A stretch of DNA of 25,528 bases from a bacterium. GTDB taxonomy: Bacteria > Patescibacteriota > Minisyncoccia > Moranbacterales > DUUL01. The notes beneath the pieces are model-generated. The model searched no databases and had not been told where the DNA came from. It saw only the letters and a list, made by a program, of their open reading frames with translations. The translations under genes were made by a program, and so were the position numbers. Shown here piece by piece: positions 1 to 10,668 of the stretch (the first letter of the stretch is position 1; each line of letters opens with the position of its first letter). Location: positions 1 to 25,528 of the forward strand of contig DAOWHU010000054.1 of assembly GCA_030641245.1 (NCBI GenBank), read 5' to 3'.

Positions 1-28
1 ATGTTTGATGGATGGGACAATTTTGCAT
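1..28 (-). CDS. 5' end of a CDS running off the window (MQNCPIHQT...)
   Basis: ATG at 28-26 with GGAGA at 40-36, 7 nt upstream; only 9 codons visible. Confidence 0.35.
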
Positions 29-149
29 AATATGCTCTCCTTTTTTTATGAAACTTTAATCGAATCAGAAATTTATGAAAAAACACCAACTTTGTCTAAT
101 AAGACCAGTGAGATAGTTTGCCAAGAAAAAAAGGTCTTGTCAAATGAAG

Positions 150-296
150 GAGAGGAAATCGAAGGGTCAAGTCGCTAAATTCAAACGGCGCCAGCGGATT
201 GTTTTCGTTAAGCGCTTCCTCCCCGGACTCGGCGCACTTTCTTTGGTTGCTCGCCAGCTCTCAACATAGCGCCTCCGTCTAGTTCGATTCTCTCTC
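150..296. ncRNA. Structured ~145-nt element, copy 1 (unknown family)
   Basis: Shares invariant blocks with 1449-1591 (GAAGGGTCAAGTCGCTAAA, CGTTAAGCGCT, TCCCCGGACTCGGC, TTGCTCGCCAGCTC, TCCGTCTAGTTCGATTCTCTC); imperfect terminal inverted repeats. Confidence 0.6.
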
Positions 297-309
297 AACC
301 TTGTGAAAG

Positions 310-350
310 ATAAAGCGAAACCACCTCCGATGGAGGTGGTTTCGCTTTAT
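310..350. repeat. Perfect 19-bp hairpin adjoining the att-like core
   Basis: ATAAAGCGAAACCACCTCC-GAT-GGAGGTGGTTTCGCTTTAT; positional counterpart of 1607-1646. Confidence 0.8.
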
Positions 351-428
351 TTGCACGGAGTCGTGAAGGACGTTAGAACTTTTTTTGAGAAGAACGGTGA
401 GGATATTAAGATTCCGGATTTAAATTAA
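351..428 (+). pseudogene. Possible orphan C-terminal tail of a site-specific recombinase (LHGVVKDVRTFFEKNGEDIKIPDLN*)
   Basis: Open frame starting at the repeat core; the same frame at the tRNA junction reads LHGWRESN; resemblance to recombinase tails is recalled, not searched. Confidence 0.3.
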
Positions 429-456
429 AAAATACGACATTGATAATATCCACAAT

Positions 457-1329
457 TTAATTATCATTATGACTCATTTTGGTAATCCCATTGTTATAAT
501 AAGACAAATTTTCACTTTCTAATAATCTTTTAATGCTCTTCCCTTTACTAATTTTCTCTTTTTTTAATATCTGTTTTTTTGCTTCAGGCTCGTGATGCGT
601 TAAAAGTCCCATTTCAGGCCAATACATATTTCTAACCCAATTCCCTTTTTCGTTTATATGACTATGGACAGGCTCTCTTTCTTTTAACGTTAACATTTTT
701 TTAATAGCAATTTTTCTGGCGATACCATCAATTTTCTCCATTCTACTAATCGACTCCAAATATCTTGCGAGTAATAATTTTTCCAACATTACATTTCCAG
801 CTTTTTGATAAGCAAATAGATCTTTGTATTTTTTTTGAAACTTTTTATAATCAATAGGAAACATTTTATATTTTGTTGCCCATTTTAAATCAATAACAAA
901 AAAATCCACTGCAATTCCAATATCAGCAATATTACTTCTATCGGGAAGACCCCAGGAACAAGTAGCTAAATGCAATTTATCGTCTTTCATTTTTTGAATC
1001 ACATTTTCAATATATTTTGGTTTTATTAGCCAAGTATCTGAAGCTAAAACAACCACATATTTGATTTCTTTATGTTTTTTTTGAAAATTTTTAATTCCTG
1101 TTTCTATTAAATCTGAGGCTCCTTGAAAATGCCAACTATTTTCCATCACAACTAAGTCATTTTCTAAGTATTTCTCCGGATACCATTTTTTATTACCATT
1201 AAAAGAATGGACTATTTTTACATCCTCAAAAAATTTAGACTTTCCCCAAACATTTCTGATAATATCCATATTTATCTTGGCATCGTCAGTTCTATTGTAT
1301 GTATAAATTAAAACTCCGATATTTTTCAT
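457..1329 (-). CDS. Putative glycosyltransferase (GT-A fold-like), 290 aa
   Basis: N-terminal IGVLIYTYNR strand and a VVVLASDTW DxD-like segment; long, very AT-rich ORF. Confidence 0.45.
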   Translation of the reverse strand: MKNIGVLIYTYNRTDDAKINMDIIRNVWGKSKFFEDVKIVHSFNGNKKWYPEKYLENDLVVMENSWHFQGASDLIETGIKNFQKKHKEIKYVVVLASDTWLIKPKYIENVIQKMKDDKLHLATCSWGLPDRSNIADIGIAVDFFVIDLKWATKYKMFPIDYKKFQKKYKDLFAYQKAGNVMLEKLLLARYLESISRMEKIDGIARKIAIKKMLTLKEREPVHSHINEKGNWVRNMYWPEMGLLTHHEPEAKKQILKKEKISKGKSIKRLLESENLSYYNNGITKMSHNDN

Positions 1330-1394
1330 AAATTTAATAAATTTTTATAAATACATTTTAACAACAAATCTTTGAACATCCAAATATCAGAACC

Positions 1395-1423
1395 AAAAAA
1401 ATAGCTCTGAGAGCTACTTTTTT
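1395..1423. terminator. Bidirectional intrinsic terminator-like hairpin
   Basis: A-tract, TAGCTC-TGA-GAGCTA, T-tract; lies downstream of tRNA-Trp on the minus strand. Confidence 0.6.
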
Positions 1424-1438
1424 AGTTAGATTCTACGA

Positions 1439-1460
1439 TGCACGGGTGGAGAGAATCGAA
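1439..1460 (-). repeat. 22-bp duplication of the tRNA-Trp 3' end
   Basis: TGCACGGGTGGAGAGAATCGAA identical at 1439-1460 and 1648-1669. Confidence 0.9.
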
Positions 1461-1591
1461 GGGTCAAGTCGCTAAACTCGTGCATCGCTTTCAGCTCGCA
1501 CTCGTTAAGCGCTTTCTCCCCGGACTCGGCAGACTATCTATAATTGCTCGCCAGCTCGCAATGGACTGCTTCCGTCTAGTTCGATTCTCTC
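1449..1591. ncRNA. Structured ~145-nt element, copy 2
   Basis: Perfect 12-bp terminal inverted repeat GAGAGAATCGAA/TTCGATTCTCTC; homologous to 150-296. Confidence 0.6.
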
Positions 1592-1606
1592 AACCTCGAG
1601 CAAAAG

Positions 1607-1646
1607 ATAAAACAAAACCGCCTCTTTCGGAACGGTTTTGTTTTAT
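1607..1646. repeat. 14-bp hairpin directly 3' of tRNA-Trp
   Basis: ATAAAACAAAACCG...CGGTTTTGTTTTAT. Confidence 0.75.
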
Positions 1647-1649
1647 TTG

Positions 1650-1720
1650 CACGGGTGGAGAGAATCGAACTCCCGTTATTGGTTTTGGAGACCAACGTAT
1701 TACCACTATACGACACCCGC
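1650..1720 (-). tRNA. trnW: tRNA-Trp (CCA)
   Basis: Cloverleaf: acceptor GCGGGTG/CACCCGT, D arm GTAT/ATAC, anticodon arm TTGGT-CTCCAAA-ACCAA, T arm GGGAG-TTCGATT-CTCTC, discriminator G; 3' CCA not encoded. Confidence 0.95.
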
Positions 1721-1738
1721 AGGGCTAACACTAATTTG

Positions 1739-1875
1739 CAATAAACCAATTTTCAATTTACAATTAGTTTTCAATAAATTAGTTTTCAAACTTAGGCAAG
1801 CAAAGCTTGCCTTCATTGTAACTTTTTAAATTGGAAATTGATTGTAAATTGGTTTATTGAAAATTGTAAATTTTA
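1739..1875. repeat. AT-rich heptad-like repeats in inverted arrangement around AGGCAAGC-AAA-GCTTGCCT
   Basis: CAATAAACCAATT (1739-1751) is the reverse complement of 1847-1859; central hairpin at 1794-1812. Confidence 0.7.
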
Positions 1876-1932
1876 TACCCTTAAATCATCGCACAAACAA
1901 AAATAATAAAATATATTTTGATATTTGCAAAA

Positions 1933-2361
1933 TTAACCTTCAATTTTGATTCCCATCGACCTCGCTGTTCCAGCAATAATTTTACTGGCTGCTTCAATAT
2001 CATGGGCGTTTAAATCTTCCATTTTTTTCTCAGCGATTTCTTGAACTTGTTTTTTAGTAACTGTCCCAACCTTATCGGTCAGAGGATTTCCGGCTCCCTT
2101 TTTAACTCCAGCTGCTTTTTTCAAAAGTTCAGAAGCAGGAGTGGTTTTTAATTTAAGACTAAAACTTCGATCTTCGTAAACACTAATTTCTACTGGGACC
2201 AAGTCGCCTTGTATGTCCTTAGTATCGTTGTTAAATTGAGTACAAAAATCTTGAATGTTAAGACCGTGTTGTCCTAAAGCTGGACCAACTGGAGGCGCAG
2301 GATTAGCTTGACCAGCCCTAATTTGTAATTTGATAACTGTAGTCGCTTTTTTGTCTGACAT
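1933..2361 (-). CDS. rplK: 50S ribosomal protein L11
   Basis: [23 protein letters not shown] and IAGTARSMG signatures. Confidence 0.98.
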
Positions 2362-2386
2362 CTTGTTAAATTAATTTTAAATTTTG

Positions 2387-2402
2387 TCCGCCAGCTGGCG
2401 GA
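2387..2402. repeat. Perfect 16-bp palindrome TCCGCCAGCTGGCGGA
   Basis: Direct reading; variants at 24816-24830 and 25393-25409. Confidence 0.8.
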
Positions 2403-2519
2403 TTGATTCAATTTTGAATGATTTAATGTTTAATTTTAATTTCCACTTCAGGCAAATAATTTAAAATAATCAATTTTTTTCGTTTAGGATATAGCCTCGG
2501 ATGGAACTCTTTGAAATAT

Positions 2520-2643
2520 TTGGAATTTATTGGTTTGAGCGCAATCCGAGAAGAATCCGAGCACTGAATGAGATGAACTTAATGGTTCATCGAACGAATG
2601 GCGAAGGATTCGACGAAGGAGTGTGCCAAACCAGAAATTCCAA
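2520..2643. repeat. Long imperfect hairpin element A, abutting the nusG stop codon
   Basis: Outer stem TGGAATTT-TGGTTTG/CAAACCA-GAAATTCCA; inner stem GATGAAC-TTAATG-GTTCATC; homologous to 3524-3660. Confidence 0.75.
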
Positions 2644-3189
2644 CTAGATTTTTTTTATTTGGAGAAAATCAAGCTCTACAGGGGTTTCCCTCCCAAAAAT
2701 ATTCACCAAAACACTTACCTTCCCTCTATCGATATCCATTCCTTCGACCTTACTTTCATAACCTTTGAAAGGACCGTCAATAATCTTAATAATTTCACCT
2801 AATTCAAAATCAATATTATATTTAGGTTCATCTTTTTTACTTCGCTTTTCAATAACTCCCATTTCCTCTGGGTCAACTGGGGTCGGAGTAGTTCCAAGCC
2901 CAATAAAACCAGTCACATTGGGAGTATTCCGAACAACATACCAAGACTCATCAGTCACTTCCATTTCCACCAAAACGTAGCCGGGGAAAACTTTTTCTTC
3001 AATCGTGCAACGTTTCCCATTCTTAATCTTAATCTTCTTTTCCTTGGGAACTAGCACCTTAAAAATTTTATCCCGCATGTTCATAGACTCGATTCGTTGC
3101 TCCAAATTTCGAGCAACATTGTCCTCGTATCCGCTGTAAGTGTGAAGTACGTACCAAGCCTTGCCAAGATTTTGAACTTGCTTTGCCAT
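2644..3189 (-). CDS. nusG: Transcription termination/antitermination factor NusG
   Basis: WYVLHTYSGYE, FPGYVLVEM, VRNTPNVTGF and KOW/FGRETPVEL motifs. Confidence 0.98.
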   Translation of the reverse strand: MAKQVQNLGKAWYVLHTYSGYEDNVARNLEQRIESMNMRDKIFKVLVPKEKKIKIKNGKRCTIEEKVFPGYVLVEMEVTDESWYVVRNTPNVTGFIGLGTTPTPVDPEEMGVIEKRSKKDEPKYNIDFELGEIIKIIDGPFKGYESKVEGMDIDRGKVSVLVNIFGRETPVELDFLQIKKI

Positions 3190-3324
3190 GAATTTTAGTT
3201 TATAAAGTTAAAAAGTTTGCCCTATTAAATAAGCTACGCCTAATTTTAAATAAAATTTAAAATTATTTAACTGGGTAAATAAAGTTGGAAAGTTGGAGCT
3301 TGAGAACAGTCCCATTAACTTTCG

Positions 3325-3507
3325 CTAGACAATGAATTGTCCAACTCCGTTCGAAAAAAGTAAATCCAGAACACCGAGGAATAGGGCTACCGCAAGACTT
3401 ACGCCAATTACAATTCCGGTATATTTAACAGTTTGTTCTCTGCTAAGCCAACTTACCTTTTTAAGTTCCTCTTGGGCTTCTTTGATAAAGGTTATAATTT
3501 TTTTCAT
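3325..3507 (-). CDS. secE: Preprotein translocase subunit SecE
   Basis: ELKKVSW motif followed by one TM helix; directly upstream of nusG. Confidence 0.95.
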   Translation of the reverse strand: MKKIITFIKEAQEELKKVSWLSREQTVKYTGIVIGVSLAVALFLGVLDLLFSNGVGQFIV

Positions 3508-6532: not shown

Positions 6533-7402
6533 AGTTTCAAAAATTAAAGACACAACACAACCTTTTTTAGTTGAAATAACTAAATTGGGTTTGATTAATA
6601 GATATTTTTTATTCTTGTAATACAACTTGAGTTTAAACTTTTTCAGATCTTGAATCAAGGGCACTTCGCCTATTCAAATCAATCACTGTTATTTGTCAGT
6701 CGTAATCTCCTTAATAATCATGTTGTTAACGTGAAACACGTCACAGGATGACTATTAAAGAGAAAAAGTGGGTACTCCTAAATTTATTAGTATTCCTCGG
6801 CTGAATGTATTACTACACTTACACCTAGAACCTATCGACCTGGTAGTCTACCAGGAAATTTTGTTCCGATAAATCGAAACGGTTGTCTTATCTTGGAGTG
6901 GGCTTCCCGCTTAGATGCTTTCAGCAGTTATCCCGAACCAATATAGCTACCCAGCAATGCACTTGGCAGTGACAGCTGGTACACCAGAGATTAGCTCTTT
7001 CCGGTCCTCTCGTACTAGGAAAGAATCTCCTCAAACAACAACGCCTACGGCAGATAGAGACCAACCTGTCTTACGACGGTTTGAACCCAGCTCGCGTACC
7101 TCTTTAAATGGCGAACAGCCATACCCTTGGGGCCTTCTTCAGTCCCAGGATGAGATGAGCCGACATCGAGGTGCCAAACAGCGCCGTCTATATGAACTAT
7201 TGGGCGCTATTAGCCTGTTATCCCCGGGGTAACTTTTATCTGCTGATCTTCCGCGCATCTATATGCCACGGTCGGTTCACTAAATCCTGCTTTCGCAACT
7301 GCTCGACTGATAGGTCTCGCAGTAAATTTGGCTTATGGTTTTGTCCTATCACTCCGATTTCCATCCGGAGCTAGCCAAACTTTATGAGCGCCTCCGTTAC
7401 AC

Positions 7403-7434
<32 letters not shown>

Positions 7435-7450
7435 ACCAGGCACTGTTCCC

Positions 7451-7650
7451 GGTCTGGTATTTGGACTTTTCGCTTTGAGCTTGAAGTTGAATAAACAACT
7501 TTTTAGAATTAGATCATGCAGACAATTAGAAACATTTTGAGAAATCGTCAAAAAACAATTCCGTCAAAAATTGTGAAAACTTACTAAAGTTAATCTTAAT
7601 CTAATTATCTGCTTTTCTAATTTTACATTGAAAAGTACAAATAACAGACC
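7451..7650 (-). other. ~180-nt insertion extending 23S helix 79 (E. coli ~2210)
   Basis: 20-bp stem 7451-7470/7631-7650 (2 mismatches) encloses 160 AT-rich nt where E. coli has a short hairpin. Confidence 0.85.
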
Positions 7651-7922
7651 AGGGTTAGCATTCAAAATCACACAGAGTGGTATTTCACTGATGACTCCAT
7701 CCCGACCGAAATCAGGACTTCAAAGTCTCCCACCTATTCTCAGCAGTATAATATCAAACGCAATGCCAAGCTGTAGTAAAGCTCCACGGGGTCTTTTCGT
7801 CTTGCCGTAGGTAGAGGGCATCTTTACCCCCATTGCAATTTCACCGGGTCCTTCGTTGAGACAGTTGTCCAGTCGTTACGCCTTTCATGCGGGTCGGAAA
7901 TTACCCGACAAGGAATTTCGCT

Positions 7923-8296
7923 CTGACATGTTATCTTTACGTCGCCGTAAAGCACGGACTATAACTTATCACTTAATTCTAGTGACTTCAGCGTTTAGTC
8001 TCTGAGGATTCCAAGAGCTTTATCAATCGTTCTTGATCTTTCCTGCTGATATTCTGGCAGTTTTTACAAACTACACTGGAAACATTTTCACTGGATATAA
8101 AAATATCCGAGTAGTTCCAGATTCTCCAGATTTTCCAGCATATGGCTGAATGTTTTTGGACATTATGTTAATTCTACATAATAAGCAACTACTTTTACCT
8201 CTCAACTTTTCAACTTTATTTTAACTTCAAATATACTCGACTACACTTGCCCATAATCGTTCCAGTCCTTGAAACTATCTCTAAGAGACAGCCTCA
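7923..8296 (-). ncRNA. Group I intron at 23S position 1931, 374 nt, no endonuclease ORF
   Basis: Splits CTAAGGT|AGCGAAATTCC; exon ends in U and intron ends in G; P ATGCTGGAAA, Q ATCAGCAGG, R CAGAGACTA, S TTATAGTCC; P3 TTCAGC/GCTGAA; P9 with GCGA tetraloop; guide GCTGTCT pairs with both exons. Confidence 0.92.
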
Positions 8297-9117
8297 ACCT
8301 TAGAACGATTATAGTTATCGCTGACGTTCACTGGCGCTTCGGAGATTGGCTTGCACCGCTCTCGTTAACGTTCCAGCACTGGTCAGGCGTCAATCCCTAT
8401 ACTTCCTCTTGCGAGTTAGCAGAGACCTGTGTTTTTGATAAACAGTCGCCAGACATCTTTAGCTGCGGCCAACCCTATAAATAGGATCGGCAGACCTTAT
8501 CCCGAAGTTACGGTCGCTGTTTTGCCGAGTTCCTTAACGAAGGTTCTCCCGTTCACCTTAGGCTACTCGCCTTGTCTACCTGTGTTGGTTTTAGTACGGA
8601 TGCTATATTACTAATTTTAGAAGCTTTTCCTGGCACTCTGCTCGCCTTTCTTCTCCTGACAAAGTCAGAATTCGAGTTAATTCTTGGAATATTGCTAGAC
8701 GGATTTACCTATCTAACTTCCTCAAATTACCTACCGGAATCCAATAACCGGCAAAGATTACTAAAATGCGTCACTCCATCAAATAATATAGTAGTGCAGG
8801 AATATTAACCTGCTATCCATCGACTACCCTCGACCTAAATCGAGACTCGCCTTAGGACCGACTAACCCTAGGATGATTATCATAGCCCAGGAAACCTTAG
8901 ACTTTCGGTGTACGGGGATTTAACCCGTATTGCGGTTACTCATACCAACATTCTCACTTCTATCCGCTCCACTCAAGCTCACGCTAAAAGCTTCACTGCA
9001 AATAGAACGCTTCCCTACCACCCAACGCAAAAAGCGCTGAATTCGCATCTTCGGTATTATGCTTAGCCCCGGTACATCTTCGACGCAAAACCACTGAACT
9101 AGTGAGCTGTTACGCTT

Positions 9118-9152
<35 letters not shown>

Positions 9153-9997
9153 AGTTGTCAAAGTAATTTCACCTTCTTTTCCACTTAGCATAAATTTAGG
9201 GACCTTAGATTGCGATCTGGGCTGTTTCCCTTTTGAGCCTGGATCTTAGAACCCAGGTTCTGACTGTTGGGGTCAATCAATAAGTATTCGGAGTTTGGTT
9301 GAGTGATCTAGGCATAGCCCGATACACTCATTCAGTAGCTCTACCCCTTATTGATAATTGGAACTGAGGTAAATCAGTCCCTTCCCAACGCTAGCCCAAG
9401 AGCTATTTCGGGAAGAACCAGCTATCGCCGGACTCGATTGGAATTTCTCCTCTATGCACAAATCATCCCCGCGCATTAAACGACGCGTGGGTGCGGGCCT
9501 CCTCTCAATGTTACTTGAGATTCACCCTGTTCATGCATGGCTCGTCCGGATTCGGGTCTAATTCATAAGACTTACGGCGGTTAAACCTCGCTTTCACTAC
9601 GCTTATTTCACAAAGTGACTTAAGCTAGCCATATAAATTAACTCGTTGGTTCGTTCTGCAAAAAGCACGCAGTCATCCACCCGAAGGCAGACTCCTACTC
9701 TTTGTAAGCACATGATTTCAGGATCTATTTCACTCCCCTTTCGGGGTTCTTTTCACCTTTCCTTCACAGTACTAGTACGCTATCGATCTGAAACAATATT
9801 TAGCCTTGGAAGATAGTGCTCCCGGATTCAAACGGGGTTTCACCGGCCCCGCCCTACTTGAGAACAACTGCAATGAAGATTTATTTTTTTCGCTTACGGG
9901 ACTATTACCCTCTATGGTCTCTCTTTCCAAAGATATTCTGCTAAAAATAAATTTTGTAACTTCACATTAATTAAATAATCACAATTGCCTCGCAACC

Positions 9998-10240
9998 CCA
10001 TAAACTGAATAGTGCACCGGATCCTAAGATTCTAGGATCCGGACAAGCACTCGAAACATCACACAGACCAAGCTCCTTTAAAAGGAAGCGGTCCTAGGTT
10101 TTCACCGATATAAAATCGGGAGGATTTAAACACACGCAAGAAATCTTCAATCAAACTTTAAAACCGAGGTGGTGGTTGTGTTTCTGATTAAAACTCACGG
10201 GTTATAATAGTGATGTTTTTTTGCACTATTCAGTTTATGG
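9998..10240 (-). other. ~220-nt insertion extending 23S helix 15 (E. coli ~270)
   Basis: Perfect 19-bp stem 9998-10016/10222-10240 encloses 205 nt of small hairpins. Confidence 0.85.
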
Positions 10241-10668
10241 TTTAGGCTACTCCCCGTTCGCTCGCCGCTACTTAGGGAATCTTGGAAACTATTAAAAATA
10301 GTTTCACTGTGTTAATTTTTTTTCCTTCGGGTACTAAGATGTTTCAGTTCCCCGAGTTTGCCCCCACTCATGTCTCACTATTTTCGACATTAGTCGAACT
10401 CAGTGAGACACGAACGAGTAACAGAGGTCTACTCTGTTGCGTTTCCGCATTCGGAAATTCCCGGATCAAAGGTTGTTTATCACCTCCCCGAGACTTATCG
10501 CAGATTACTACGTCCTTCGTCGCTTGTTTCAGTCAAGGCATCCATCATGTGCCTTAGTTGAGCACCGCACTTTTGACTGACAAATAACAAAGATCGAAAG
10601 ATCCATCGTTATCCATGCCAAAAGCTTATACTCTAATTATATTACAATTTTTTTTACCTACATCTATA

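Follow-up and report, generated by a model that had tools for sequence, protein, structure and literature searches.

A dispersed, protein-less and tightly folded putative insertion element behind tRNA genes of a patescibacterial lineage

The attC sites of integrons and the attP(+) site of the CTX phage are imperfect, strand-specific hairpins of about 60-150 nt in which structure is conserved over sequence, and the stem of the CTX hairpin mimics the duplex target site. IS200/IS605 elements are not known to produce a target duplication or to carry a long inverted copy of their target. Here we describe an element that is present in two copies, copy 1 at 150-296 and copy 2 at 1449-1591, in a 25,528-nt stretch of DNA (contig DAOWHU010000054.1 of assembly GCA_030641245.1, positions 1 to 25,528; hereafter the window) from a patescibacterial genome of the Moranbacterales, DUUL01, which we refer to as G000. 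As with the islands and prophages whose integration site is the T-loop sublocation, its target is the part of a tRNA gene from T loop to 3' end, the tRNA is kept intact by a supplied copy of its tail, and the displaced tail stays behind as a direct repeat. Unlike these islands, it measures about 200 nt, encodes no protein, carries an additional, inverted copy of the tail as well as a folded, covarying core, is accompanied by a duplication that extends through a terminator, and shows no consistent co-occurrence with a recombinase. It is a dispersed, protein-less, tightly folded insertion element that fits no described RNA or mobile-element family. We favour, with about as much confidence as doubt, the reading of a non-autonomous insertion cassette without genes, which would dock on tRNA genes at the segment between T loop and 3' end and whose fold would act in single-stranded form.

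The unit has a fixed order on the strand of the tRNA: the tail of the tRNA gene (S), a terminator hairpin (T1), an inverted tail (A'), a core of about 120 nt, a direct tail (A'') and, often, a second terminator. A' is S in reverse complement, with as many as 25 nt free of mismatch, and A'' is a direct copy of S, repeated exactly for up to 55-67 nt. The two arms pair with each other as a helix, P1, which closes the core into a three-way junction; where full-length copies were folded, P1 comprised 7-8 or more base pairs without interruption. Copy 2 lies with all its parts on the minus strand of the window, behind a tRNA-Trp (CCA) gene at 1649-1720 (ARAGORN; Rfam RF00005, 65.8 bits), and the last 22 nt of this gene, T loop to 3' end, are the repeated tail S. 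The interval between the tRNA and the element is filled by T1 (1607-1646), a palindromic spacer with a bidirectional intrinsic-terminator hairpin for which the terminator scan gave a 16-bp stem and a T run. A' (1579-1602) is the reverse complement of the tRNA-Trp tail and the 5' strand of P1 when read on the tRNA-sense strand; this inverted tail copy lies 51 nt past the tRNA, and within it 1579-1591 is exact for the T loop and the 3' strand of the T stem, whereas 1592-1602 is a decayed complement of the acceptor strand. The core occupies 1461-1578, and its three-way junction was derived from RNAalifold, the covariance model R1 and pair counts. A'' (1439-1460), the 3' strand of P1, is an exact 22-nt direct repeat (0 mismatches) made up of the tRNA-Trp tail plus CA, and the 22 of 22 nt that match from the T loop to the 3' end are the direct repeat expected of a tRNA-integrating island. 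A second terminator hairpin past A'' (1391-1427, terminator scan) closes the unit.

Copy 1, on the same strand, is built from A' (282-296, P1 5' strand), a conserved core (164-281, 148 bits) and A'' (149-163, P1 3' strand), a decayed tail resembling that of tRNA-Trp, and it has its own T1 hairpin at 312-347 (stem at 321-333 in the terminator scan). Alignment of 100-380 with 1400-1680 gave a gap-free match between 150-296 and 1449-1591 across the whole element: invariant blocks alternate with three variable segments, each as long in one copy as in the other, and the listed pairs are present, as an earlier first-pass annotation of the window had described. The inverted ends that it had likened to a T arm, GAGAGAATCGAA and TTCGATTCTCTC, do match the T arm of tRNA-Trp, corresponding to the T loop and T-stem 3' strand of the adjacent gene.

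The same annotation spoke of two copies, a count that is right for the window and falls short for the genome, where the element forms a dispersed family. BLAST, nhmmer and Infernal searches with model R1 recovered 14 full and about 4 partial copies in G000 (816 kb, 76% complete, 108 contigs), many of them at contig ends, as expected because repeats break assemblies. Model R1 found 25 further copies in 7 of 40 related genomes, the bearers comprising all four other searched genomes of the genus and three other genera of the family, as well as 34 more on metagenome contigs, and it found none in 16 genomes from other families of the order. The number of copies per genome ranges from 1 to 16. Against Rfam 15 at gathering thresholds, only tRNA, 5S and 23S rRNA matched and the element core did not, and with E values up to 10 over window positions 1-2000 the core was still uncovered, the weak matches falling on terminator hairpins; the family is thus as unrecognised as had been stated. 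BLAST with the whole unit against phage and plasmid collections gave no match, a loose pattern scan of genome contigs returned mostly chance matches, of which that on G008's own contig alone was real, and the literature that we searched contained no description of a tail, terminator, inverted tail, core and tail in this arrangement. The element resembles bacterial miniature inverted-repeat transposable elements (Correia, ERIC, RUP, BOX) in its length of about 150 nt, its dispersal through intergenic DNA, the inverted repeats at its ends, its fold as a long hairpin and its position beside terminators, but its inverted repeats are derived from the target and specific to the tRNA, its duplication spans 58-76 nt instead of 2-10 bp, and it occurs at tRNA tails only. 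A coding reading of the 96-aa open reading frame (ORF) that crosses copy 2 (1438-1728, plus strand) was rejected, since the same frame has a stop in copy 1 and the variable segments change by base-pair compensation and not synonymously.

The core consists of a 5' domain, a hairpin with the conserved loop GAGCNNGCGAG, a junction formed by CCGAGTCC and GGGGAG, and a 3' domain, a long hairpin with the conserved internal loop CTTAAYGA / TTTAGYGA. Between copies 1 and 2 the stems change in a compensatory manner, GTGC/GCAC being replaced by AAAC/GTTT, GCT/AGC by CGC/GCG, GGCAG/CTGCT by GGCGC/GCGCC and TTGC/GCAA by GTTG/CAAC. Over 41 aligned copies, standard pairs occupy 96.9% of cells compared with 78.1% in shuffles, and not one of 500 shuffles reached the observed pairing; sliding the partners by 1-3 columns lowered it to 25-41%. 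Both sides have changed in 27 of the 33 pairs. The element is under selection for shape, as the first-pass annotation had proposed from its two copies. The annotation had assigned the fold to the plus strand, antisense to the tRNA, and on this point the larger set of copies speaks the other way. On the tRNA-sense strand G-U outnumbers A-C at consensus pairs by 84:21 in the genome and its relatives and by 55:9 in the metagenome copies, and RNAalifold gave -33.6 kcal/mol for this strand compared with -24.6 kcal/mol for the opposite one. Because of the G-U excess and the RNAalifold preference, the folding strand is that of the tRNA, i.e., the minus strand of the window; the G-T wobble of GGCAG/CTGCT that had served as a strand clue is a minority state of one pair. 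Since G-T pairs are tolerated in single-stranded DNA too, the strand bias cannot separate RNA from DNA. As in attC sites, a folded hairpin is found whose structure is conserved and whose stem sequence varies. Much as the CTX stem mimics its target, P1 reproduces the duplex of the tRNA tail, and gene cassettes sit between copies (e.g., the 290-aa ORF of the window). Unlike attC, it has no integron integrase, no attI platform and no pattern of R and L boxes, and its stem varies with the host tRNA.

With few exceptions, copies of the family stand just behind a tRNA gene. Among the 33 tRNA genes of G000 (ARAGORN), 11 or 12 have an element copy on the same strand 13-60 nt downstream, and adjacency and strand are likewise kept in related genomes and on metagenome contigs, the tRNA linkage covering 16 genomic, 25 related-genome and 34 metagenomic copies. 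The arms of each copy match its host tRNA, and the inspected copies have a hairpin equivalent to T1 between tRNA and element. On contigs C87 and C53 of G000, S, T1 and A' together form a near-perfect palindrome with the terminator loop at its centre and arms that reach up to about 45 nt each. In G000, no inverted tail occurs without a core.

A non-coding RNA gene, too, would show conserved loops, covarying stems and an excess of G-U on the strand of the tRNA, and we weighed the possibility that the copies are such genes placed behind tRNAs, transcribed by read-through from the tRNA promoter and multiplied by duplication, with P1 mimicking the acceptor/T-stem minihelix. RNase P, 3' trimming and CCA addition would then release a stable RNA of about 150-165 nt, whose loops would bind a protein or act on tRNA metabolism. 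The end of the unit, where tail, trailer and terminator follow one another as at the 3' end of a pre-tRNA, is compatible with this proposal, and so is the full-length A' on contig C53, which equals the acceptor 5' strand plus the T-stem 5' strand of the host tRNA. However, a terminator hairpin with a T run separates the tRNA from the element and no promoter-like site comes after it. None lies between T1 and the element, and terminators stand on both sides, which argues against an ordinary independent RNA gene. In addition, many copies have lost the acceptor part of P1 or retain it in decayed form, with A'' of the Val copy reduced to just 7 nt, gains and losses of copies separate species within one genus, the number per genome ranging from 1 to 16, and the same flanking design surrounds unrelated cores. 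On balance we consider a set of RNA genes unlikely.

The comparison of orthologous sites points to movement. The tRNA-Trp site is filled in G000, with two copies and the ORF between them; in G001 it holds a different core, which is short; in G003 and G004 it is empty, consisting of the tRNA and a terminator alone; and in G008 it holds a third, unrelated core with the same A'/A'' design. In the Lys(CTT)-Val(TAC)-Arg(TCG) cluster, the Lys-to-Val spacer measures 221 nt in G000, 97 nt in G001 and 39 nt in G011, and the Val-to-Arg spacer 202, 10 and 22 nt, respectively. The empty sites of this cluster do not have even a terminator, so the insert brings T1 along. In a tree of the cores, copies did not cluster by tRNA identity, those linked to Gly(GCC) in four genomes being scattered, and three copies of G013, located at Ser, Gln and Tyr tRNAs, were mutual nearest relatives. 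Aligned with each other, these three have a common core and differ in their arms of 9-10 nt, each of which matches its own host tRNA. One G013 copy is flanked by a perfect duplication (67/67 nt), which points to a recent insertion; it starts at the T loop and takes in the rest of the tRNA, the trailer and the complete terminator. In other copies the duplication measures 58-76 nt with few mismatches, and its limits are always the same two, T loop and terminator end. Orthologous sites that are filled, empty or occupied by another core, together with the 67-nt duplication, indicate that the element behaves as mobile DNA. The tie to tRNA-targeting mobile DNA that had been suggested for the window is borne out by the position behind tRNAs, the tRNA-matching arms and the presence or absence of the element at orthologous sites.

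The layout of the unit, from the tRNA tail to the second tail copy, recurs in at least three other core families. The first is represented by a 70-nt core (GGGAGCGAGAG...) at tRNA-Ser(TGA) on G000 contig C95 (2024-2180), which has a 21/21-nt inverted tail and shares the GAGCNAGCGAGC loop with the core described here (family 1); another is found at tRNA-Arg(TCG) in G000 and G001, and the third is that at the tRNA-Trp of G008. Several unrelated cores of the same design, with no helper gene that tracks the element, are among the features to be expected if the units were by-products of template switching during replication, made without a dedicated enzyme. According to this explanation, the switch points would be the hairpin of the terminator and the T-loop sequence (GGTTCGAATCC), which is palindromic and universally conserved; at them the triplet of tail, inverted tail and tail would be made and sequence lying between two T-loop motifs copied across tRNA loci. 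It would account for the near-perfect palindrome that S, T1 and A' form on C87 and C53 (up to about 2 x 45 nt) and for the constant limits of the duplication at T loop and terminator end. It leaves unexplained why loops are conserved and stems compensated over more than 70 copies and why the inverted tail is found only with a core in G000, and we regard it as very unlikely.

Copy 1 of the window and copies in G003, G004 and G008 have no upstream tRNA. In place of the tRNA, beyond T1, these copies have a short coding-like remnant (..DVRTFFE.N..), which in the window lies at 351-428 on the plus strand (..HGVVKDVRTFFEKN..) and holds the T-loop-like sequence GTTAGAAC; its codons GTT CGA/AGA ACT contain a T-loop-like palindrome. 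The same peptide is encoded in G004 and G032, variant forms of it are found in G008 and G003 and on G000 contig C83, and it varies synonymously between genomes (AGA/CGA). It was not found inside longer proteins, a 42-aa query matched nothing, and weak matches inside large ORFs look like chance. The remnant at 351-428 may be the stranded tail of a recombinase or an attP-like site. On contig C83, two remnants (..WRD(R/K)LNDVRTFFME.., near 6560 and 8004, plus strand) follow terminator hairpins without an adjoining family-1 core, and tandem GC-rich repeats of about 30 nt precede the one near 8004.

Genes are carried between or after some copies. In the window this cargo is a 290-aa ORF between the two element copies (457-1329, minus strand), which matched no family and gave no Pfam or PADLOC match, and accessory genes are found on G008 contig C23 and metagenome locus L280. 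On G000 contig C53, a 438-aa defence reverse transcriptase (RT) of the DRT2 (UG2) type lies 255 nt beyond the copy (L058:1219-2535, minus strand; PADLOC 1.6e-127), its gene converging on tRNA-Ser(GCT). None of the cargo stretches examined (the window ORF, G008 C23, L280 and C53) contains a recombinase. Elsewhere in G000, contig C2 carries a 538-aa large serine recombinase with Resolvase, Recombinase and Zn-ribbon domains (1749-3365; L328), the last 14 codons of which are the antisense of a tRNA-Asp tail. More than 10 relatives have a recombinase that ends in tRNA-tail antisense, with C-termini reading ..RDSNPR.., which indicates that recombinase islands cross over at the same T-loop site. Large serine recombinases are the leading helper candidate, as a lead and not a result: the crossover site of their cassettes is that of the element (G000 C2 and relatives), but the recombinase is not present wherever the cassette is.

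The use of this site by recombinase islands in the same genomes raises the question of whether the copies are nothing but scars, end regions left behind when an island with a large serine or tyrosine recombinase integrated into the tRNA gene and later departed; they would then have no independent existence, and the core would be the arm region of an attachment site. A direct repeat of the tRNA's T loop to 3' end classically marks a tRNA-integrating island, copies without a tRNA adjoin a conserved tail-like remnant and cargo genes, and the DRT2 defence gene is situated 255 nt past the C53 copy, all of which is in line with this origin. In contrast, most copies have no cargo at all (e.g., in the Lys-Val-Arg cluster) and the whole insert amounts to about 200 nt; these inserts have no ORF, and the cargo between copies holds no recombinase, so a carried integrase was not found. 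Double-stranded att arms would show neither compensatory changes nor a strand-specific G-U bias, and no island at the examined loci carries the core beside its recombinase. We judge an origin as island scars to be quite improbable.

Under the favoured reading of a non-autonomous cassette, the element would move via a single-stranded form, either lagging-strand DNA or a read-through transcript, and the folded core would be what the insertion machinery recognises. The join would be made at the palindromic T-loop hexamer TTCGAA, and the arms would be re-templated on, or corrected against, the new target through DNA synthesis. A' could be rewritten by target-templated DNA synthesis or by correction of the palindrome across T1; palindrome correction is a known template-switch process.

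Several observations weigh against the cassette reading. Conservative recombination cannot rewrite A', and any such model leaves the origin of the tRNA-specific A' arm unexplained. The G013 copy with the perfect 67-nt duplication has an A' that matches the target only to about 70%, which suggests that A' and the duplication need not share one event. No excised circle or transposition intermediate was seen, the clustering of cores within a genome could mean gene conversion and not recent movement, and conserved loops with covarying stems are the signature of a functional RNA too. Moreover, no helper co-occurs with the element. The PF07508 recombinase was not found in G002, G009 and G013, genomes that are 91-96% complete and include G002 (95%, 7 copies) and G013 with its three young copies. 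Of the 8 genomes with the element, 6 have no RVT_1, and RT does not track the element. There is no TnpB in the genus, and Y1_Tnp is absent from G000, G001, G002 and G013, yet present in many element-free genomes.

The same searches bear on two further comparisons. With the IS200/IS605 derivatives known as PATEs and REPs the element shares being a small, non-coding, strand-specific and hairpin-rich repeat, and with the omega-RNA of TnpB a structured scaffold of about 120-150 nt that abuts a flank-specific, guide-like segment; it differs from both in that the genus has no TnpB and the Y1 transposase does not track the element. A tRNA-primed or snap-back RT mechanism was set aside, as RT is missing from 6 of 8 bearers and the repeats lack CCA: they follow gene and trailer sequence, unlike a primer-binding site. 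The RTs of G000 are the DRT2 enzyme and a retron-type RT. The latter is encoded on contig C59 together with a protein with an SNase domain (L057:1238-2374, minus strand, and 337-1152, plus strand), about 1.6 kb upstream of a tRNA-Gln(CTG) with its cassette. An integron was likewise rejected, the sole intact tyrosine recombinase found in G000 being of the Xer type (225 bits against the TIGR02249 cut-off of 265) and adjoining lepA.

It is tempting to speculate that the element represents an undescribed mode of DNA mobility, in which a folded single-stranded core docks on essential tRNA genes and its arms, rewritten for each target, serve as an address label that updates itself. In Patescibacteria the same docking sites would then line up accessory and defence genes as arrays that lack a recombinase. 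We find this broader proposal possible but doubtful. Patescibacteria have tiny genomes with few recognisable mobile elements, yet about one third of the tRNA genes of G000 carry the cassette. If the arms are target-templated, essential genes could be targeted harmlessly without a protein encoded by the element, and this would help to explain why accessory and defence genes, here the DRT2 RT and orphan ORFs, pile up behind tRNAs. The covarying core provides, in the form of a covariance model, a handle for the search for a helper and for the question of single-stranded DNA versus RNA.

Three other features were noted in passing. An insert of about 300 bp behind tRNA-Glu(CTC) in G000 encodes an 85-aa GIY-YIG nuclease ORF (C29:2866-3123; L329:217-474, minus strand; Pfam 1.3e-13) and has as its borders an exact direct repeat of 51 nt, which comprises the 3' half of the tRNA from the anticodon stem onwards; it is a different small element that uses a tRNA gene. 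In the window, an AT-rich palindromic repeat at 1733-1872, between tRNA-Trp and rplK, belongs to a separate repeat family, for which all four other genomes of the genus gave dozens of matches, some in one orientation and some in the other. Finally, the 23S rRNA gene of the window (6768-10567) is 3800 nt long compared with a model of 2925 nt, corresponding to insertions of about 900 nt.

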